Shown: piece by piece, positions 1-45,504 of the stretch
Position numbering within the stretch: position 1 is the stretch's first letter
How the letters are laid out: each line of letters begins with the position of its first letter
IMG/VR virus record: IMGVR_UViG_2870484749_000003
Span: 1-45,880 of that record
Length of the DNA stretch: 45,880 nucleotides
DNA from: a virus
Lineage: Duplodnaviria > Heunggongvirae > Uroviricota > Caudoviricetes
Strand: one strand, 5' to 3'
Position numbers and translations under genes: made by a program
Notes under the pieces: generated by a model
The model's database searches: none
What the model saw: only the letters and a program-made list of their open reading frames with translations
Told to the model about the DNA's origin: nothing

Positions 1-708
1 ATGTGGGTCAATAAGTATATTGACGATTGCACTGATGAGGATTTAAACGATCGTGACTTTATTGCATCAGTTGTTGACCGGGCTATTTTTCATTTCGCGA
101 TTAATAGTATATGTAATCCTGGGGATAATAAAGATGCAATGCCCATTGAACAATGTACTTTTGATGTAGAAACTAAGAATGACCTTCCCTCCACGGTTCA
201 GCTATTTTATGAGGAATCTAAGGATAATGAACCTTTAGCGAATATACATTTTCAAGCAATAGGTTCTGGTTTTTTAACGTTTGTTAATGCCTGCCAGGAA
301 CATGATGACAACAGCTTAAAATTATTTGCTTCGCTGTTAATTTCACTTTCATATTCTAGTGCCTACGCAGATTTATCAGAAACAGTGTATATTAATGAAA
401 ATAATGAGAGCTACCTGAAAGCTCAGTTTGAAAAATTATCTCAACGTGATATGAAGAAGTACCTGGGAGAGATGAAGCGTCTGGCTGATGGGGGAGAAAT
501 GAATTTTGATGGCTATCTGGATAAGATGTCACATCTGGTGAATGAAGGAACGCTCGATCCTGATATTTTAAGCAAAATGCGAGATGCTGCACCACAATTA
601 ATTAGCTTCGCGAAGTCGTTTGACCCAACCTCAAAGGAAGAGATTAAAATACTTACAGACACTTCTAAATTAATTTATGATTTGTTCGGGGTTAAATCGG
701 AGAAATAA
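1..708 (+). CDS. hypothetical protein in host flank upstream of dusA (235 aa); position and length are consistent with E. coli yjbM but sequence identity not verified
   Basis: Complete ORF starting at window position 1, AT-rich, lies outside the prophage left junction; no recognisable motif. Confidence 0.5.
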   Translation: MWVNKYIDDCTDEDLNDRDFIASVVDRAIFHFAINSICNPGDNKDAMPIEQCTFDVETKNDLPSTVQLFYEESKDNEPLANIHFQAIGSGFLTFVNACQEHDDNSLKLFASLLISLSYSSAYADLSETVYINENNESYLKAQFEKLSQRDMKKYLGEMKRLADGGEMNFDGYLDKMSHLVNEGTLDPDILSKMRDAAPQLISFAKSFDPTSKEEIKILTDTSKLIYDLFGVKSEK

Positions 709-1066
709 TATGTGAAGTTCTTCGATAGTATGGAAGGCATTATATAAAAGGACCCAATATTTATTGGGTTCTTTTTTCTCTATCAATGCTATTAGCAGGG
801 AGATATATCACCAGAGTTTAATGTGTGATTTTTTATTTATCGTCGAACCTGGATTGTTTATCATTGGCCTTAACAAAGTTAACGGCTAATAAGATTATTT
901 CCATCACTTCGTGAGAGCTTCATGCCTTGAGAGGATCTCAATTTTCTTTTGCAATGAGACAGGCGCTTCCTGTTGTTATGGTATAGTACCCCGCTATTGA
1001 GCCTCCTGAATAGTGATGCTGAATAACATAACCCCATGATATATCGATAAAATAATCTCTACATTT

Positions 1067-1174
1067 GAAAATGCACGGTAATTCTGAAATGCAAAAAATC
1101 AACCAAACCAGCGCAATGCCTGAAAAAACTGACGTTCACTGGAGTGGTCGGTTTAGCGTTGCACCAATGCTCGA
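1067..1174. other. attL: native dusA 5' region, imperfectly homologous (~80% by eye) to attR at 44464-44570
   Basis: aaaatgcacggtaattctgaaatgcaaaaaatcaacc...atgctcga aligns with aaaatgcacgataatcatgaaacacaaaaaattaatc...atgctcga at the start of the intact dusA; similarity ends at atgctcga in both copies. Confidence 0.75.
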
Positions 1175-1193
1175 TAGGATGTACCGTTGTTGA
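1071..1193 (+). pseudogene. displaced native dusA 5' fragment (35 dusA-like codons, then 5 codons of prophage-end sequence and a stop)
   Basis: Translates MHGNSEMQKINQTSAMPEKTDVHWSGRFSVAPMLD then RMYRC*, paralleling the N-terminus of the intact DusA at 44467 ([38 protein letters not shown]...). Confidence 0.7.
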
Positions 1194-1318
1194 AAAACAA
1201 GTAGTTATACACTCTGTGGGAGCCTATTGGGAACCCGGCGTTTTCATTTCAAGGTGTAATCCATACGCGGCTTAAGAATGAGATATAATGCGACTTTTAG
1301 TGTTCCGCTTGAGAGGCC

Positions 1319-1855
1319 ATGATGCTTACCCTGGACGAGATAGGTCAATCAGTACGTAACAATATCCAGTTGATTATTGATCATGTCGGCTTACCTCTTG
1401 CTGTTGGTCCGCTCAGTGATGATGATTACAAGATTCTGTGTGGTGGCTATGGTGAGCTTGAATGGGACTATGCGTTAAGTACCTATGGCAACTCCAGAGA
1501 AAAGTATGAGTTCTGCATAAAACTTGTTCAGCAAGGTCGGGTTCAGGGAATACCATCAGGAGCAGCAATTTGTGTTTATGGGGTTGAAGAAAACATCTTT
1601 CGTATCCATATGATCGAAAGGTTTTCTAGAGAAGATGAATCTCACCCATTGAAAGGGCGCATGGTTTTACTCACTCTTATGAGTGCTTTTATATTTTGTA
1701 AAGCTGTTGAATGTAAAGTTGTCCACATTGTAGAGCCAGTACCAGAACTGGTGCAGTATTACGAGTCTTTTGGTTTCCGCATGGAACAGTGCGGTTATGT
1801 GATGTCGGCAGTCATTGATGAGCTGCAGGATATCTTTCTTAAATTTGCTCAGTAG
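1319..1855 (+). CDS. hypothetical cargo protein, possibly GNAT-fold acetyltransferase-like
   Basis: 178 aa ORF with RBS gagagg before ATG; C-terminal YYESFGF resembles GNAT motif B; first gene inside attL, opposite orientation to the early-left operon. Confidence 0.5.
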   Translation: MMLTLDEIGQSVRNNIQLIIDHVGLPLAVGPLSDDDYKILCGGYGELEWDYALSTYGNSREKYEFCIKLVQQGRVQGIPSGAAICVYGVEENIFRIHMIERFSREDESHPLKGRMVLLTLMSAFIFCKAVECKVVHIVEPVPELVQYYESFGFRMEQCGYVMSAVIDELQDIFLKFAQ

Positions 1856-2051: not shown

Positions 2052-2225
2052 ATGAAAGATCAAAAAGCAACCAAGCCACAGGTTAAGTTCGACACAATGA
2101 AAGCATTCGCAGGTATGGGTGCTGCTGTTGAAGTTCTGATGAAGGCTGCTCCTAATGCGTTCACTCACGCTACTGTCTCTGGTAAAGAGCAGCAGGGTAA
2201 GCTTCGTCGTCGCAAAGCAGCATGA
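2052..2225 (+). CDS. small hypothetical protein (57 aa)
   Basis: ATG preceded by gggag RBS at 2041-2045 and followed by an intrinsic terminator; below the 60 aa cutoff of the ORF track. Confidence 0.4.
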   Translation: MKDQKATKPQVKFDTMKAFAGMGAAVEVLMKAAPNAFTHATVSGKEQQGKLRRRKAA

Positions 2226-2244: not shown

Positions 2245-2273
2245 AAAACCCGCCTTCAGGCGGGTTTTTTCTT
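2245..2273 (+). terminator. rho-independent terminator
   Basis: cccgcc-ttca-ggcggg hairpin followed by a T-run (tttttt ctt). Confidence 0.6.
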
Positions 2274-2554
2274 TAGTGATGTTCTTTGTCCTTCTGTTTG
2301 ACTGTTCTGACCTGTTCCCACTCGATACGTCCTTCTTCTCGCCTTTTGTCTATGTATTCCGCAAGATCCTGAATATTGATGCAACGTTTTGCTTTTTGTG
2401 ATGTGCCGATGCGATATGTTGGAACGGGCAACTTACAAGCGTTTGCTTTTGCTTCTGCCGTGGCTGGACTCATACCAAAGTACTTTTGGCTAACTGCTGA
2501 GAGTTCAATGTTTGGGGTATTGAATTCAGCCATCAGTAAAAACAAGGTGTTCAT
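2273..2554 (-). CDS. PrtN-family (pyocin activator-like) DNA-binding protein; start chosen at the MNTLFLLMAEF methionine
   Basis: MNTLFLLMAEFNTPNIELSAVSQKYFGMSPATAEAKANACKLPVPTYRIG matches the PrtN-like family by recollection; GGAG RBS upstream of the internal ATG. Confidence 0.65.
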   Translation of the reverse strand: MNTLFLLMAEFNTPNIELSAVSQKYFGMSPATAEAKANACKLPVPTYRIGTSQKAKRCINIQDLAEYIDKRREEGRIEWEQVRTVKQKDKEHH

Positions 2555-2590
2555 AATTTTCTCCATCAAAACCGGCTGCACCCGGGAAAA

Positions 2591-12739: not shown

Positions 12740-12756
12740 TTTTGTGGAGAAAGTTG

Positions 12757-13110
12757 ATGCGTGATATGTATGAAGTTTTGGACCGCTGGGGGGCATGGGC
12801 TGCTGCAGAAAACAGTGGTGTGGACTGGCAACCGGTAGCTGCTGGCTTCAAGCGGCTTTTACCTCATGGCAGAAAGTCCCGGATTCAGTGCGATGATGAT
12901 GAGGGCATCATAATAGACGGTTGTGTCGCTAGGTTGCGTAAATACAAGCCGGCAGAGTATGAGCTGATAATTGCTCACTTTGTTGTTGGCATTTCGCTCC
13001 GTACAATTGCAAAGAAGCGGAAATGTTCAGACGGAACAGTTCGAAAAGATATGCAAACAGCTATGGGGTTTATTGATGGATGCTTGTCATTTTTTTATTT
13101 AATACAATGA
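12757..13110 (+). CDS. putative late antitermination protein Q (small QuuD-like family)
   Basis: 117 aa from the ATG with GGAGA RBS; HTH-like ELIIAHFVVGISLRTIAKKRKCSDGTVRKDM; position between nin-type genes and the late/lysis region. Confidence 0.5.
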   Translation: MRDMYEVLDRWGAWAAAENSGVDWQPVAAGFKRLLPHGRKSRIQCDDDEGIIIDGCVARLRKYKPAEYELIIAHFVVGISLRTIAKKRKCSDGTVRKDMQTAMGFIDGCLSFFYLIQ

Positions 13111-13189: not shown

Positions 13190-14230
13190 GTGAACATTCA
13201 AGCAGTAGACATTTTTTGTGGCGCAGGGGGCTTAACTTTTGGGCTAAAAAAAGCCGGGATTGAAGTTTCTCATGGCATTGATATTGATGAGTCCTGCCGT
13301 TTCGCTATTGAGAGCAATAATCCCTTAACGAAGTTCATTAACCAGTCAGTTACTGAACTGCAATCCAGCGATGTGTCTGCTATGTTCAAGGAAGGAAATA
13401 TTAGATTACTTGCAGGCTGTGCCCCTTGCCAACCGTTTTCCAAGTATCGTAATCCAAATAGCAGAAAAGATGATACAAAGTGGCGTCTTTTATCTGAGTT
13501 TCAGAGGATTGTAAGTGATGTCATGCCAGAGCTTGTGACTATGGAAAATGTTCCTCAACTTAGAAATCATAAGGTTTTTGAAGAGTTTGTTAGTGTATTA
13601 AAGACTCTTGGGTATCATCTGTGGTACGACGTTGTAAAATGTTCCGAGTATGGCTTGCCTCAAAATAGACGTAGATTAATTCTAATTGGGTCCATATTGG
13701 GGCCAATCAGCCTTGATCAAAAAAAAGTAAGCCGTAAAGTTACAGTAAAGGATGCTATTGGTCAGTTGCCAAAAATAGGTGCAGGGGAGAAACTCGAAAG
13801 TGATCCATTGCATCGTTCGCCTAAATTAAGGGATATTAACCTTAAACGAATCTTGCACTCTTTACCAGGTGGTACGTGGGATGATTGGCCTGAAGAAATT
13901 AGAGCGGATTGCCATAAAAAGCATTCAGGTGCTACCTATAAAAGTGTTTATGGACGGATGGTTTGGGACGATACTAGTCCTACAATAACTACCCAATGTT
14001 ATGGATATGGTAATGGGCGATTCGGACATCCTGAGCAAAATAGAGCAATAACTTTGCGTGAAGCTGCTATTTTACAATCTTTTCCTATGGATTATAAATT
14101 TATTGGAAAAAATACGCCTTTTTCATTCCAAAAGTTAGGAACGATGATTGGTAATGCTGTTCCCCCTATAATTGGCCAAGTAATAGGGAGAACGTTTGTT
14201 AGGCATGTTGAGGGGATAAATATCCGTTAG
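13190..14230 (+). CDS. DNA (cytosine-5)-methyltransferase (Dcm-like)
   Basis: Canonical C5-MTase motifs: FCGAGG (I), GCAPCQPFS (IV, catalytic PC), ENV (VI), QNRRR (VIII), GNAVPP (X); GTG start with GGAG RBS; AT-rich by eye. Confidence 0.9.
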   Translation: MNIQAVDIFCGAGGLTFGLKKAGIEVSHGIDIDESCRFAIESNNPLTKFINQSVTELQSSDVSAMFKEGNIRLLAGCAPCQPFSKYRNPNSRKDDTKWRLLSEFQRIVSDVMPELVTMENVPQLRNHKVFEEFVSVLKTLGYHLWYDVVKCSEYGLPQNRRRLILIGSILGPISLDQKKVSRKVTVKDAIGQLPKIGAGEKLESDPLHRSPKLRDINLKRILHSLPGGTWDDWPEEIRADCHKKHSGATYKSVYGRMVWDDTSPTITTQCYGYGNGRFGHPEQNRAITLREAAILQSFPMDYKFIGKNTPFSFQKLGTMIGNAVPPIIGQVIGRTFVRHVEGINIR

Positions 14231-14888
14231 AGATAATATAATCTTCAGTTGAGTTTATTAATAAACGAAGATATAGATCAACTCTCTCTGCTCTAGACTT
14301 AACTTCTTCTAAGGGGTCAATTTGCCCCTTTTTAGAGAAGCTAGTACTTCCATGCGCGAGTTCGTTTCTGATATCCTTAAGCAAGTCTAAGTCAATACCA
14401 TTTCTACATTCAGGTGAGTTTGCGATAGTTATTCCGTAAGCCTGCGTTATTTTGTGTAATACAGGCTTGCAAACATTACCATTGAATTCTTTACGAATAT
14501 TCAATGAGGCTGAAATTATTCTTTTGGAAATGTCAGTGCCTATCTTTTTATAAAGGGATTGCCCTGTTTCATTATCTGAAACAATTCTATGTAATATATT
14601 TACTTGAAGCTTCTCCCTGAGTGATGCGTAATTCACCTCATTATCTTGTAAATGATCATAAATTGACTCGATGCAACCTCTGGCAGTATTTTCAACTTGA
14701 TTATATAGCATCATATGAACGGATGATTTTAAAATATTTACCCTTAGGATATTAGATTCTATTTCATCTTGATGCGCTTGCGGATCTAACTGCTGAGTAT
14801 GAATCTCTATAGATGATGCAAGAGAAAGCAGTTCCATAATGTCTCTTGCTCTTTCTTCATATTCATCTCGTAAATCAATTAGACTCAT
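14199..14888 (-). CDS. HEPN-like nuclease (resembles MAE_28990/MAE_18760 family)
   Basis: C-terminal Rx4H HEPN motif in DIRNELAHG; start 2 nt after the DUF262 stop; 3' end overlaps the convergent C5-MTase by 32 bp; AT-rich. Confidence 0.75.
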   Translation of the reverse strand: MSLIDLRDEYEERARDIMELLSLASSIEIHTQQLDPQAHQDEIESNILRVNILKSSVHMMLYNQVENTARGCIESIYDHLQDNEVNYASLREKLQVNILHRIVSDNETGQSLYKKIGTDISKRIISASLNIRKEFNGNVCKPVLHKITQAYGITIANSPECRNGIDLDLLKDIRNELAHGSTSFSKKGQIDPLEEVKSRAERVDLYLRLLINSTEDYIISNGYLSPQHA

Positions 14889-14890
14889 TT

Positions 14891-16051
14891 TTAAATCCCT
14901 AACAACTTATTTTTAACGTAAAAGATTCTGTTTTTTAGCTGGCTGGTATTGTTTGCACTATCAGCAGTAACAAGTGTTTCAAATTCCTCTTCAAATAGCC
15001 ATTCACCTACAGGTACGGCTGGACTCTGGAGTTGTGGGTTAGTTTTTAATGCAAGTGCAGTTCCCACGGCAATGGCTTCGTATCTGGCTCGTGGGGTGGT
15101 TTTACTTGTTGCGGTCTTTTTAAAGCCAATAGGGAAATGGGTAGCAACAAAAGCAAGCATCATTTCAAAATCATGTTTAAAATTATCAACATCTTGTTGA
15201 GTAGTCACAGCTGCTGCTTGTTCATTTAAATAATTATCAATAAAGGGACGGACAAATCCCTTATAGTTTTCTAAATCATTTAAATATGCAAAAAATCTCA
15301 AAACTAACTCACGATGATCGCCATTCGACCGTTTCCGGTCTGATAATGGAGCTAGTTGGGAAAAAAGTGAGTTTGTTGAGCATGGGGTCACAACATCTTT
15401 ATAGAACATTGAGGTAGCAGCATCTGAGCCATGCCTCACTTCCATCGCTTCTAATCTTTTAACACCTGAGTTGATCCTTTCAAATAAATCTCTTCTATGT
15501 TGTTCCTCAACATCACCTTTCAACTCAATAAATCTTAGTGAAGCTCTTAAAAATCTTCTTTGGCGGCTAGCTAAAAGATCTGAAAATTTGAAACCTTCTA
15601 AACTTTTAAGCTCTTTCAAATCCTTTAACTCAAATTGATCGTTCCAAAAATAATAAATAGAGCGTATCCGTTGTGAACCATCAATGATTTCTACCCTACC
15701 ATCTAATTCAGGGTCTTCATTAAATACATCAGCAATGTAAAGGTAAGGTATTGGAAAGTCTAATAGAATACTTTCTATAAAGCGAGAGGCTGTTTTTGTA
15801 TCCCACTTGTAATCACGTTGATAATCTGGAATAAAAAGCTCGTTTTTGTCATTTTCAATATTATCACCATACTTTTGAATAATGACTTCAACGGTCCACT
15901 CACGTACATTGTATCCAATGTTTCTCTGAGCGAGTCTGATTTCATTGTCAGCGGAAGCGGTTAAAGCTGCAATTTCAGCCTTTTTTCTGTTCTTAGCGTG
16001 TTCATCTTGTATCTGAGCAAGCTCTTCTTTGAGTTCTTTGAGTGTAGTCAT
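14891..16051 (-). CDS. DUF262 (ParB/Srx-like) domain protein
   Basis: IPDYQRDYKW and IDGSQR (DGQQR-type) DUF262 signatures; AAGGAA RBS; no recognisable DUF1524/HNH C-terminal domain; AT-rich. Confidence 0.8.
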   Translation of the reverse strand: MTTLKELKEELAQIQDEHAKNRKKAEIAALTASADNEIRLAQRNIGYNVREWTVEVIIQKYGDNIENDKNELFIPDYQRDYKWDTKTASRFIESILLDFPIPYLYIADVFNEDPELDGRVEIIDGSQRIRSIYYFWNDQFELKDLKELKSLEGFKFSDLLASRQRRFLRASLRFIELKGDVEEQHRRDLFERINSGVKRLEAMEVRHGSDAATSMFYKDVVTPCSTNSLFSQLAPLSDRKRSNGDHRELVLRFFAYLNDLENYKGFVRPFIDNYLNEQAAAVTTQQDVDNFKHDFEMMLAFVATHFPIGFKKTATSKTTPRARYEAIAVGTALALKTNPQLQSPAVPVGEWLFEEEFETLVTADSANNTSQLKNRIFYVKNKLLGI

Positions 16052-24082: not shown

Positions 24083-26041
24083 ATGCAGGCTGGTCACCAG
24101 AGTGACGCGGATATTTATATTTATGACGAGATTGGTTTCTGGGGTGTTACAGCGAAGCAGTTTATCAGTGATCTGAATGCACTGGGCGATATCACCCACA
24201 TTAATCTCCATATTAATTCACCGGGTGGCGATGTCTTTGAAGGCATCGCCATTTTTAATGCGCTGAAAACACATGGTGCGTCCATTACCGTTTATGTCGA
24301 CGGTGTGGCGGCGTCAATGGCGTCGGTCATTGCGATGGTGGGAAACCCGGTCATTATGCCGGAAAACACCTTCATGATGATTCATAAACCATTTGGCTTT
24401 ACGGGCGGTGATGCGGAGGACATGCGCACCTATGCCGACCTGCTCGATAAAGTTGAGGCGGTTCTGTTACCCGCTTATGCACAGAAAACCGGGAAAACCA
24501 CCGATGAAATTGCTGCCATGCTGGCGGATGAGACCTGGATGTCCGGTGCCGAATGTCTGGCACATGGATTTGCTGATCAGGTAACGCCAGCCGTTAAGGC
24601 AATGGCATGTATTCAGTCAAAACGTACAGAGGAATTTAAAAAGATGCCGGAATCCATTCGAAACATGATTACTCCGCCACGCAACAGTGCTCCACGCGTA
24701 CAGGATGATGAACCTGCAGCCTCCCGGACGCCAGTGCAGGCAGCAGCACCCGTGGTGGATGAAAACAGTATCCGTGCGCAGGTACTGGCAGAGCAAAAAG
24801 CGCGTGTAAACGGTATTAATGATCTGTTTGCCATGTTTGGCGGGCGTTATCAGACGCTGCAGGCCCAGTGTCTTGCCGATCCTGAATGTTCGCTGGAGCA
24901 GGCCCGCGAAAAGTTGTTGAACGAGATGGGGCGCGAGTCCACGCCATCCAATAAAAATACCCCGGCTCATATTTATGCCGGTAACGGTAATTTTGTGGGG
25001 GACGGGATCCGCCAGGCGCTGATGGCGCGTGCCGGATTTGAAAAAACCGAACGTGATAATGTCTACAACGGGATGACCCTGCGTGAATATGCCCGTATGT
25101 CACTGACTGAACGGGGTATTGGGGTTTCCGGTTATAACCCGATGCAGATGGTCGGTGCGGCGTTCACACACAGTACGTCTGACTTCGGTAATATTCTGCT
25201 GGATGTTGCGAACAAAGCCATTCTGCAGGGCTGGGAAGATGCCCCTGAAACCTATGAACAGTGGACGCGGAAAGGTCAGTTGTCTGATTTTAAAATTGCC
25301 CATCGTGTGGGTATGGGGGGCTTCAGTGCTCTGCGTCAGGTGCGTGAAGGGGCGGAATATAAATACGTCACCACCGGAGATAAACAGGCCACTATTGCAC
25401 TGGCGACCTATGGCGAGCTGTTCAGTATCACCCGTCAGGCCATTATCAATGATGATCTGAATATGCTGACCGATGTCCCGATGAAGCTGGGCCGTGCGGC
25501 GAAATCCACTATTGCCGATCTGGTTTATGCCATTCTGACGTCTAACCCGAAAATCTCCACAGATAATGTAAGTCTGTTCGATAAAGCGAAACATGCAAAC
25601 GTACTGGAGAGCGCTGCAATGGACGTGGCATCGCTGGATAAAGCCCGCCAGTTGATGCGCGTTCAGAAAGAGGGGGAGCGTCATCTGAATATTCGTCCTG
25701 CGTTCGTACTGGTACCGACGGCGATGGAGTCTGTTGCTAACCAGGTCATTCGCTCCTCAAGTGTCAAGGGGGCTGACATTAACGCCGGTATTATTAACCC
25801 GGTGAAAGATTTTGCGACCGTTATTGCAGAGCCTCGTCTTGATGATAACAGCCAGACCACCTTCTACCTGGCTGCGTCAAAAGGCTCCGATACGATTGAA
25901 GTGGCTTATCTCAACGGTGTGGATACGCCATATATTGATCAGATGGAGGGCTTCAGTGTGGATGGCGTGACAACGAAAGTGCGTATTGACGCCGGTGTCG
26001 CGCCAGTTGATCACCGCGGTCTGGTGAAATGTACGGCGTAA
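24083..26041 (+). CDS. head maturation protease (ClpP/S49-like) fused to an HK97-fold major capsid protein
   Basis: N-terminal ClpP-like region (INSPGGDVFEGIAIFNALKTH...VDGVAASMASVIAM) and C-terminal capsid-like region in one uninterrupted ORF; start taken at MQAGHQ just after the portal stop. Confidence 0.75.
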   Translation: MQAGHQSDADIYIYDEIGFWGVTAKQFISDLNALGDITHINLHINSPGGDVFEGIAIFNALKTHGASITVYVDGVAASMASVIAMVGNPVIMPENTFMMIHKPFGFTGGDAEDMRTYADLLDKVEAVLLPAYAQKTGKTTDEIAAMLADETWMSGAECLAHGFADQVTPAVKAMACIQSKRTEEFKKMPESIRNMITPPRNSAPRVQDDEPAASRTPVQAAAPVVDENSIRAQVLAEQKARVNGINDLFAMFGGRYQTLQAQCLADPECSLEQAREKLLNEMGRESTPSNKNTPAHIYAGNGNFVGDGIRQALMARAGFEKTERDNVYNGMTLREYARMSLTERGIGVSGYNPMQMVGAAFTHSTSDFGNILLDVANKAILQGWEDAPETYEQWTRKGQLSDFKIAHRVGMGGFSALRQVREGAEYKYVTTGDKQATIALATYGELFSITRQAIINDDLNMLTDVPMKLGRAAKSTIADLVYAILTSNPKISTDNVSLFDKAKHANVLESAAMDVASLDKARQLMRVQKEGERHLNIRPAFVLVPTAMESVANQVIRSSSVKGADINAGIINPVKDFATVIAEPRLDDNSQTTFYLAASKGSDTIEVAYLNGVDTPYIDQMEGFSVDGVTTKVRIDAGVAPVDHRGLVKCTA

Positions 26042-43280: not shown

Positions 43281-44378
43281 TCAAGGGGTCTTATTTCTGC
43301 TCCTTTGGAGCTCTTCAAAACGATTATGTAAAGATTTCGGATACAGTTCGGTATATACCTGCCATAGCACGTTTAATGAACGATGCCCTGTAACCTGGGC
43401 TACTTCCTCAATACTAAAACCAGCCTCAAATAAGCGACTTGCCCCTTCTCTACGCAAATCATGGTATCGCAGATCCTTAATACCTAATTTGCTTCTTACC
43501 CTCTGAAATCCCGCAGTAACAGAAGTGCTGTTATATGGAAAAATGAATTCCGATTTTTTGGGCTGTCGTTGGACGATATCCCAGGCTTCCCCAAGCAAGG
43601 CTACTTTCATGTGGTTGCCTTCCTTTTTGCGTGGATCTTTCCTGTCTCTTACGAGTATAGATTTTTGTTCCTGGTCGAGATCTTCCCATCGTAACCTGCA
43701 TACTTCTCCGATTCGCATACAGGACCACACAGAAAATTTGAGGATATCAACGAACGGAATTTTTGAGCATTTATGAGTAGATCGTTGTTGAAGGCCTTCA
43801 ATGAGCATGTCCAGTTCATCAGATGCTGGTCTACGATTACGACGGTTTGATTTACCAATCAAACCAAGTTTAAGTAGATATGGACGAGCACTTTTCGCCG
43901 GGTTTGATGTGTAATTAATTCCGTATACAGGTTTGGCCGCATCCAGAACACTGCCAAGATAACTAACATCGTGGCTGACTGTTGCTGGACCTGCGCCAGC
44001 GTTGTTTCTTAGCCTGCAATGTTCAATTACGTCATTTTCTGTCAGTTCAGATAGTTTGATCGCGGAGATGTCACTATCCATAAGCAGTTCCAGCACATAT
44101 CTTTTAGTACGGCCTGCTTTACCTCCGGCATTTGGGTCATTTAAATATTTGTGTAGTAAGTCACGGACTGTAAGTCCGTCAACTGCATTTGATGATGGAA
44201 TGCCATATAGATCTAATTCCATCACTTTCTGTGTGCCCCATGTTTTGGCATGAGCATGTTTAGGGAATGTTTTGCTTTCCCTGTAAGTGATAACACCTTT
44301 TTCTTTGATAATCACATTACAGCGATAGCGTGGTGTGCCATCGGATTTTAGTCGTTTCTCTATGTTATAGTACGCCAT
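43281..44378 (-). CDS. int: tyrosine site-specific integrase (dusA-associated type)
   Basis: 365 aa with C-terminal R...HxLR...Y catalytic pattern (RYHDLRREGASRL...HRSLNVLWQVY); adjacent to and divergent from dusA. Confidence 0.9.
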   Translation of the reverse strand: MAYYNIEKRLKSDGTPRYRCNVIIKEKGVITYRESKTFPKHAHAKTWGTQKVMELDLYGIPSSNAVDGLTVRDLLHKYLNDPNAGGKAGRTKRYVLELLMDSDISAIKLSELTENDVIEHCRLRNNAGAGPATVSHDVSYLGSVLDAAKPVYGINYTSNPAKSARPYLLKLGLIGKSNRRNRRPASDELDMLIEGLQQRSTHKCSKIPFVDILKFSVWSCMRIGEVCRLRWEDLDQEQKSILVRDRKDPRKKEGNHMKVALLGEAWDIVQRQPKKSEFIFPYNSTSVTAGFQRVRSKLGIKDLRYHDLRREGASRLFEAGFSIEEVAQVTGHRSLNVLWQVYTELYPKSLHNRFEELQRSRNKTP

Positions 44379-44463
44379 TACACGACCTCGTTATTTCGGG
44401 TTCCCATAAAACGTGGGAACCTGTGCGGGAACCTAATGCGAGAAAAATAGCCTGAAATGTTCA

Positions 44464-44570
44464 AAAATGCACGATAATCATGAAACACAAAAAATTAATC
44501 AAACCAGCGTGATGCCTGAAAAAACTGGTGTTTACTGGAATTCTCGGTTTAGCATTGCTCCTATGCTCGA
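44464..44570. other. attR: prophage-supplied replacement 5' end of dusA, homologous to attL
   Basis: See attL; similarity to 1067-1174 ends at atgctcga (44563-44570). Confidence 0.75.
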
Positions 44571-45504
44571 CTGGACGGACAGACATTGCCGCTATTTCTT
44601 GCGTCTGCTTTCCCGCAATACGTTGCTGTATACCGAAATGGTGACCACAGGGGCGATTATTCACGGTAAAGGTGATTATCTGGCGTACAGTGAAGAAGAA
44701 CATCCGGTAGCGTTGCAACTGGGCGGTAGCGATCCGGCGGCGCTGGCGCAGTGTGCAAAGCTGGCAGAAGCGCGCGGATATGATGAGATCAACCTGAATG
44801 TCGGCTGCCCGTCTGACCGGGTGCAGAACGGCATGTTTGGTGCGTGTCTGATGGGTAATGCGCAGCTGGTTGCCGACTGCGTGAAAGCGATGCGCGATGT
44901 GGTGTCGATTCCGGTGACGGTGAAAACGCGTATTGGCATCGACGACCAGGACAGCTATGAATTTCTCTGCGATTTCATCAATACCGTTTCCGGCAAAGGC
45001 GAGTGTGAGATGTTCATCATCCACGCACGTAAAGCCTGGCTTTCGGGGTTAAGCCCGAAAGAAAACCGTGAAATCCCGCCGCTCGATTATCCGCGTGTGT
45101 ATCAACTGAAGCGTGACTTTCCGCATCTGACAATGTCGATTAACGGTGGTATCAAGTCGCTGGAAGAGGCCAAAGCACACCTGCAACATATGGATGGCGT
45201 GATGGTCGGGCGCGAGGCGTATCAGAATCCGGGTATTCTGGCGGCGGTAGACCGGGAGATCTTTGGTTCCTCGGATACCGATGCCGATCCGGTGGCGGTA
45301 GTGCGCGCCATGTATCCGTACATTGAGCGTGAACTCAGCCAGGGGACGTATCTCGGCCATATTACCCGGCATATGTTGGGCTTGTTCCAGGGTATTCCTG
45401 GCGCGCGGCAGTGGCGGCGTTATTTAAGTGAAAATGCCCATAAAGCGGGTGCAGACATTAATGTGCTGGAACACGCGCTCAAACTGGTGGCGGATAAGCG
45501 TTAA
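44467..45504 (+). CDS. dusA: tRNA-dihydrouridine synthase A with prophage-derived N-terminal codons
   Basis: 345 aa Dus-family TIM-barrel protein ([15 protein letters not shown], catalytic Cys region [11 protein letters not shown]); followed by pspG as in E. coli. Confidence 0.95.

Follow-up and report, generated by a model that had tools for sequence, protein, structure and literature searches.

The window analysed here (the whole 45,880-nt stretch of DNA) contains the 5′ end of dusA twice, which raises the question of which copy belongs to the host chromosome, which was brought in, and by what kind of recombination. A sequence-only reading had proposed that a prophage was integrated into dusA with replacement of the 5′ end of the gene, and had suggested aligning the two copies with one another and the left one with an uninterrupted dusA. 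The first of these alignments was ungapped, with 89 of 108 bases identical between 1067–1174 and 44463–44570 (register 1071 to 44467; 86 of 104 over the coding part), and with 21% and 31% identity in the 100-bp neighbours on the two sides. It corresponds to the sole direct repeat of at least 30 nt in the whole window (1068–1184 versus 44464–44580, 81%, spacing 43,396), and under a binomial model about 5e-24 matches of this kind would be expected by chance in the whole window. At the left junction, the open reading frame translates as MHGNSEMQKINQTSAMPEKTDVHWSGRFSVAPMLD followed by RMYRC and a stop, i.e., 35 dusA codons and 5 foreign codons, in agreement with the earlier description of a native dusA start and 35 codons that run into the prophage end and stop; phage DNA begins at the third base of codon 35, the change being synonymous. 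The right-hand dusA (345 codons) scored 581 bits against TIGR00742, far above the curated DusA cut-offs. The left end of the window consists of the 3′ part of the DUF2713 gene, which lies upstream of dusA in K-12-type E. coli, and the right end of dusA and the start of pspG. All features are compiled in Table 1; the coordinates of the sequence-only reading proved accurate to within 1–4 bases.

Table 1. Position, strand and supporting evidence of the features of the dusA-integrated prophage in the window
Feature	Position	Strand	Evidence
attL copy of the imperfect repeat (native dusA 5′ end; 3-nt leader and 34 2/3 codons)	1068–1174	+	82% identity to 44464–44570
Displaced dusA′ remnant ORF	1071–1193	+	Translation; PGAP pseudogene call in relatives
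Core ATGCTCGA at attL	1167–1174		Only block identical in attL, attR, attB and attP; mismatches at 1166 and 1175
Prophage, mEp460-like mosaic lambdoid, 43,396 bp, 50.6% G+C	1175–44570		Collinear with mEp460, circularly permuted
P′ arm: TAGGA (1175–1179) and two phased putative arm-type sites GTGGGAGCCTATTGGGAACCC (1216–1236)	1175–1236	+	Conserved among phages
orf178, cargo gene, phrog_4350, co-oriented with the displaced native dusA promoter	1319–1855	+	Identical in mEp460
orf57, small cargo gene, phrog_2741	2052–2225	+	Upstream of hairpin 2244–2269
PrtN-family gene, RdfN-type excisionase, probable recombination directionality factor	2273–2581	-	PF11112 E=4e-23; phrog_1300 excisionase
C-5 cytosine DNA methylase	13190–14230	+	Cargo cluster
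MAE_28990-type HEPN protein	14199–14888	-	Cargo cluster
GmrSD_N/DUF262 protein	14891–16051	-	Cargo cluster
dusA-associated tyrosine integrase, 365 aa, divergent from dusA, 88-bp gap	43281–44378	-	PF00589 E=1e-20
P-arm putative arm-type sites: inverted CGGGTTCCCA (44397–44406); two direct with 12-bp phasing, GTGGGAACCTGTGCGGGAACC (44413–44433)	44397–44433		Repeat analysis
Phage-supplied dusA 5′ segment (ΦdusA′), attR copy; start codon and first 35 codons	44464–44570	+	Contiguous with int and P′ arm in mEp460, SKA5
Intact chimeric dusA, 35 phage-derived and 310 native codons	44467–45504	+	Above TIGR00742 and NF008774 cut-offs; native from 44571
Core ATGCTCGA at attR	44563–44570		Same identity block

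The genome comparison set consisted of 5426 complete E. coli genomes. Compared as suggested with the uninterrupted dusA of other E. coli, i.e., with empty-site genomes, the left flank (window 700–1174) matched at 100% identity, and the match ended exactly at 1174. A reconstructed attB (700–1174 joined to 44571–45000) was present at 100% over all 905 nt, uninterrupted, in many complete genomes, and was covered to at least 80% in 3613 of the 5426. At the right junction, K-12-type genomes aligned only from 44464 onwards, at about 96%, the mismatches clustering within the first 107 nt. Because the empty-site genomes match the left flank up to 1174 and attB is 100% identical, the left copy is, judged from these alignments, the 5′ end of dusA that belongs to the host, whose sequence continues from 44571. 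From the window alone both copies are symmetric, and the assignment might as well be reversed, with the right-hand dusA wholly native and the left 105 bp a dusA-like piece borne by the prophage; but the empty sites are 100% identical to the left copy followed by 44571 onward and show 18 differences from the right copy, and the right-hand copy lies next to int in the free phage mEp460, so that the reversed assignment is already refuted and retains practically no weight. The int–dusA junction itself was present in 741 of the 5426 genomes (~14%), and in the near-identical lysogens strain 219 and STEC1575, PGAP already labels the 105-nt dusA fragment a pseudogene (tRNA-dihydrouridine synthase, incomplete).

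The counterpart of the empty site was found in free phages. A reconstructed attP (44200–44570 joined to 1175–1600) was contiguous in mEp460 (98.2% over 797 nt), and the same attP was also present in SKA5, Lys8385Vzw, and Φ1720a-02. With the prophage halves searched separately, window position 44570 corresponded to mEp460 position 24592 and window position 1175 to 24593; on the evidence of these matches, the prophage is a circular permutation of an mEp460-like genome, opened between 24592 and 24593. The contiguous attP of the free phages therefore identifies the right-hand dusA 5′ copy as phage DNA, which bears out the proposal that the right dusA begins with a divergent, phage-supplied segment of ~105 bp; mEp460 carries attP contiguously, and the host match resumes at 44571. 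With attB found in empty-site genomes and attP in mEp460, the proposed integration into dusA with 5′-end replacement stands, and we consider it nearly certain that an mEp460-like lambdoid phage integrated site-specifically in dusA and supplied the replacement 5′ end.

Two observations concern the phage-borne sequence around the core in other records. The ΦdusA′ segment (44464–44570) has about nine differences from the mEp460 copy (locus L002, 2770–2860), and at several of these the base in mEp460 is that of native E. coli dusA; occasional gene conversion involving the phage and host copies could account for this patchwork. In the circular record of Lys8385Vzw (MT225100.1; locus L093, ~1860–1880) the 8-bp core occurs twice in tandem, ATGCTCGAATGCTCGA, which most likely came about when a prophage was circularised from two ends both bearing the core, and is then an artefact and not biology.

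The position of the exchange was read from the four att sites, i.e., attB = CCA-ATGCTCGA-CTGG, attP = CCT-ATGCTCGA-TAGG, attL = CCA-ATGCTCGA-TAGG, and attR = CCT-ATGCTCGA-CTGG. This pattern confines the exchange to 1167–1174 and 44563–44570; the crossover had been placed in the 3′ part of the shared segment, near ATGCTCGA, and the flanking mismatches both confirm that placement and narrow it to these eight positions. The 8-bp core contains the published 7-base core of Φ1720a-02, and the surrounding attP sequence, TCCTA-TGCTCGA-TAGGA, forms a perfect 5-bp inverted repeat flanking 7 bp. Tyrosine-recombinase cores are typically built in this way, as an inverted repeat around a short spacer. Because the 5-bp pair TCCTA/TAGGA fits this anatomy, we infer the 7-bp TGCTCGA as the most likely overlap, with the cleavage positions presumably lying within ATGCTCGA.

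The requirement for the core was examined in an E. coli lineage without the DUF2713 gene, in which the empty site (SCU-101) has quite different sequence upstream of dusA and a core variant, ATGCTTGA. In the lysogen GPEC1356, which belongs to this lineage and whose integrase has the same protein accession as that of strain 219, the junctions lie at the identical core position, and dusA gains the 345-codon phage-type start. As the junction falls at the core despite the dissimilar 5′ end, targeting requires the core region only and not the 105-bp similarity. Two candidate readings were discarded in this comparison. Matches to the right junction that begin at 44554 (e.g., in SCU-101) had been taken for another dusA-targeting element; they are really empty sites of the lineage without DUF2713, with its shorter dusA. 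The T/C difference at core position 6 was tried as a guide to the cleavage sites and rejected, as GPEC1356 carries the host-type T in both attL and attR; this fits either a base within the overlap (heteroduplex repair) or a phage already carrying T.

These data also bear on whether an integrase was involved at all, since an identity of 82% over ~105 bp superficially resembles the outcome of a homology-driven event, and the repeat might then have arisen by homologous (RecA-type) recombination or segmental duplication. In E. coli, the minimal efficient processing segment of RecA is ~23–27 bp. The longest perfect run between both dusA 5′ copies is 16 bp, i.e., below that segment, and the same 8-bp core junction is used in the lineage with little 5′ similarity and in Citrobacter rodentium. 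Every junction examined lies at the core, with none elsewhere in the 105-bp segment, and attP formation by an Int identical at 364 of 365 residues is Int-dependent (PMC6328086). An origin by homologous recombination or duplication is thus highly improbable, and site-specific integration is retained. Because 16 bp is shorter than the RecA segment, the same lack of long matches should guard against loss of the prophage by homologous recombination of one repeat with the other.

The integrase residues R222, H306, R309, H332, and Y342 were invariant in comparison with five homologues and were aligned with the XerA catalytic region. The protein was identical at 364 of 365 residues to Int of the Stx2d phage Φ1720a-02, and its identity was 98.6% to mEp460 Int, 36% to that of BcepIL02, and 35% to that of Pseudomonas phage H66, over at least 93% of the length. 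The integrases of mEp460, BcepIL02 (a Burkholderia phage), and H66 are named as dusA-associated integrases (DAI) in the family-founding paper (Farrugia et al. 2015, PMC4482086). The near-identity to the Int of Φ1720a-02, for which dusA integration is proven, together with the 98.6% identity to mEp460 Int, upholds the earlier attribution of the junction to a dusA-specific integrase. As for integrases that target tRNA or tmRNA genes, no tRNA or tmRNA genes and no Rfam families were found in the whole window. In a homologue scan with one genome per species, 80 related loci were obtained, of which 74 had enough upstream sequence; dusA was divergent and 21–213 bp from the int start in 64 of these 74 informative loci across Proteobacteria, which reproduces the published 83% (PMC4482086).

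PrtN homologues occur in 64% of dusA islands (PMC4482086) and are typical rather than strictly defining, and RdfN is the essential excision factor of the dusA-specific element IMEVchUSA3 (Durand et al. 2021, PMC8409611). Judged from its family assignment, the PrtN-family gene of the prophage probably corresponds to RdfN. The core region GTTGCACCAATGCTCGACTGGAC covers the dusA codons V-A-P-M-L-D-W-T, the same position as attL and attR of A. baumannii, and 16 of its 23 bases match by eye the A. baumannii att sequences (supplement of PMC4482086). The locus thus has the features of a DAI element, namely RHRH plus Tyr, family homology, divergent int and dusA, 5′-end replacement, att repeats over the β1 codons, and a PrtN/RdfN gene.

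The following course of events is proposed. A temperate mEp460-like phage would have recombined into codons 33–35 of E. coli dusA, the integrase (43281–44378) acting on attP and the chromosomal attB inside the 8-bp ATGCTCGA. With the diverged dusA start of ~105 bp carried in attP just upstream of the core, insertion would rebuild a full-length dusA at the int-proximal junction, with the phage's start, 35 codons, and upstream region, and would leave the native promoter and first 35 codons stranded 43.4 kb away, to be stopped after five phage codons. Excision would need Int and the PrtN/RdfN-type factor (2273–2581) and would restore wild-type dusA and the phage attP, with predicted junctions ...GCTCCTATGCTCGATAGGATG... 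and ...GCACCAATGCTCGACTGGACG...; both predicted products (attP and attB) exist in public sequences.

Because int and rdfN are intact and the phage gene set is apparently complete, the prophage is assumed to be still competent for excision. A correctly integrated prophage may also decay and become immobile, and the early and tail-fibre regions, which are mosaic relative to related prophages, as well as the extra cargo at 13190–16051, would be compatible with such a state. Against this, int is full length with all catalytic residues, rdfN is intact, the att arms including their repeats are identical to those of viable phages, the repressor, Q, lysis, terminase, portal, capsid, and tail genes are present as long ORFs, and most of the length is collinear with the viable mEp460, which makes loss of excision rather unlikely and favours a prophage that can still be excised. 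The prophage genes comprise rdfN, exonuclease, CI-like repressor, Q, lysis, terminase, portal, capsid, tail, J, Lom, tail fibre, DinI, and int; collinearity with a viable phage, permutation at attP, and this full lambdoid gene set mark a lambdoid temperate phage.

The cargo cluster (13190–16051) lies just downstream of the antiterminator gene Q (12742–13110), at the position of stx in Stx phages, and has the look of a defence or moron module. Strain 219 has an otherwise similar prophage that lacks it. A DinI-like gene (PF06183, 42971–43219) was found between the tail-fibre genes and int, and is conserved in mEp460, SKA5, Lys8385Vzw, and strain 219.

The closest free phage is mEp460 (JQ182728 / NC_019716), which has the same orf178, orf57, and PrtN-family genes; as a mosaic, it differs in that its alignment covers only 46% of the prophage's left half, and 13190–16051 is extra cargo here. 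The best-studied counterpart is Φ1720a-02 (Φstx2dact, KF030445.1), which integrates 100 bp into C. rodentium dusA with an in-frame ΦdusA′ (Balasubramanian et al. 2019, PMC6328086), has a 7-base core common to attL, attR, attP, and attB (PMC6328086), and yields an attP that was detected by deep sequencing but was not detectable in a Δint mutant (PMC6328086). It shares with the prophage the P arm, ΦdusA′ segment, core, and P′ arm, whereas it carries stx2d and other early and late modules, and aligns to only ~41% of the left half of the prophage at 91% identity. The native dusA 5′ end of its host C. rodentium resembles ΦdusA′ far less, and the int-proximal site, called attL in that paper, is attR in our naming (PMC6328086).

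The DAI elements D1279779_RGP05 of A. baumannii and Prophage 03 of P. protegens Pf-5 likewise have a divergent int, a replacement 5′ end and a displaced native end (PMC4482086), and DAI elements share the semi-conserved att repeats of ~21 bp over the β1 codons (A-P-M-L/M-D-W) and the PrtN homologue seen here (PMC4482086); their excision restores wild-type dusA (PMC4482086). DAI islands are reported with att sites of 26–28 bp, whereas here the 5′ segment is unusually host-like, with 82% identity over ~105 bp, and the distant members BcepIL02 and H66 have integrases only ~35% identical to the one described here. IMEVchUSA3 (SGI1-like, Vibrio cholerae) also inserts at the dusA 5′ end, E. coli K-12 included (PMC8409611), and has a PrtN-like RdfN across attP from int; in contrast to the prophage, it is a mobilisable island under the control of IncC-plasmid AcaCD, with an unrelated rdfN promoter and an only distantly related integrase. 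A parallel drawn by Durand et al. (PMC8409611) is the SXT ICE in the 5′ end of prfC, which differs in integrase family, target gene, and element type.

Beyond the core, the attP arms contain phased repeats, with one inverted and two direct copies by the int start and two direct copies ~43 bp past the core. The P′ arm is kept up to ~1236 in mEp460, SKA5, Lys8385Vzw, Φ1720a-02, STEC1575, and GPEC1356, and divergence sets in beyond the last repeat. The same layout of five repeats with another motif, TGGGGTGCTG, was found in Yersinia phage YeP3 (locus L007, 1244–1266 and 1441–1491), whose Int is 69% identical, and the P-arm arrangement also recurs in Mixta and Morganella loci. The motif varies by lineage, with TGGGAACC in E. 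coli phages, TGGGGTGCTG in YeP3 and a Mixta locus, and GGGGTGC in Morganella. GGGAACC was not over-represented in the whole window (5 copies versus 5.45 expected), with 4 of the 5 copies clustered in the attP arms, and it is considered meaningful only because of this clustering and the layout conserved in YeP3. Exact 8-mers at 10–13-bp spacing within 120 nt upstream of int occurred in 27% of the 64 dusA-adjacent loci versus 0.7% of control windows, a contrast that is indicative only, as the control windows were mostly coding sequence. The layout and its exchange of motifs between lineages suggest that the attP repeats may be arm-type binding sites of Int or RdfN that co-evolve with the protein. 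If true, Rci-like dusA integrases would be heterobivalent like lambda Int. Durand et al. 2021 (PMC8409611) do not use the term "arm-type".

The content of the slot between attL and rdfN varies: orf178 and orf57 occupy it in the window and in mEp460, and Panacea-domain modules do so in STEC1575 and GPEC1356. In every case this cargo has the same orientation as the stranded native promoter of dusA. Between that promoter and the cargo slot no terminator-like site was found, nor any before 2244; a strong hairpin resembling an intrinsic terminator follows orf57 at 2244–2269. A promoter swap could result, by which the host dusA promoter and leader come to lie upstream of the cargo and the cargo is expressed specifically in the lysogen. 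Since orf178 has its own upstream TATAAT (perfect, 1284–1289), its transcription need not depend on read-through from the host promoter, possible as this is. A search for canonical sigma-70 promoters upstream of the rebuilt dusA yielded none, and a relaxed scan gave weak candidates only. Taken jointly, co-evolving arm-type sites in attP plus a promoter swap with lysogen-specific cargo expression are a reading that we hold to be evenly poised between right and wrong.

Among sequenced phages, orf178 and orf57 were found only in mEp460-type phages and one 42%-identical relative. For orf178, no match was obtained in Pfam, NCBIfam, or PADLOC, and its single-sequence AlphaFold model (pLDDT 51) was too poor for a fold search; a GNAT-like appearance noted by eye is unsupported. 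In other dusA lysogens (L004, 3271–4259; L005, 2782–3826; corresponding to window ~1300–2250), the slot holds a Panacea-domain protein together with a hypothetical protein, which are possibly a toxin–antitoxin pair.

For the host, lysogeny alters the N-terminus of DusA. The phage and native dusA 5′ ends differ at 18 of 104 coding positions, by 5 synonymous and 9 non-synonymous codon differences, with 9 of 35 residues changed. The curated DusA profile begins only at residue 27, and the strand RFS[VI]APMLD is retained in the phage copy, in agreement with the argument of Farrugia et al. 2015 (PMC4482086) that the replacement 5′ end restores the first β strand of the TIM barrel. Lineages without DUF2713 are converted by lysogeny to a 345-codon dusA. 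In SCU-101 (locus L003, 2456–3451), dusA lies directly downstream of zur, and the native protein has 331 aa, its start corresponding to M16 of the K-12-type protein; this suggests that the annotated start of the 345-aa K-12-type dusA may lie upstream of the real start.

Integration into dusA with 5′ replacement is already known, with the family, including E. coli prophages and mEp460, described in 2015 and experiments reported in 2019 and 2021; the phased-repeat layout and the promoter swap are minor additions to that literature (PMC4482086, PMC6328086, PMC8409611). The dusA finding advances no open question here and matters mainly for annotation. A 105-nt "dusA pseudogene" (1071–1175) together with an altered DusA N-terminus marks an occupied att site and not gene decay. 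As ~14% of complete E. coli genomes carry this int–dusA junction and Stx-converting phages use the same site, this signature is useful for giving exact prophage boundaries, here 1175–44570.
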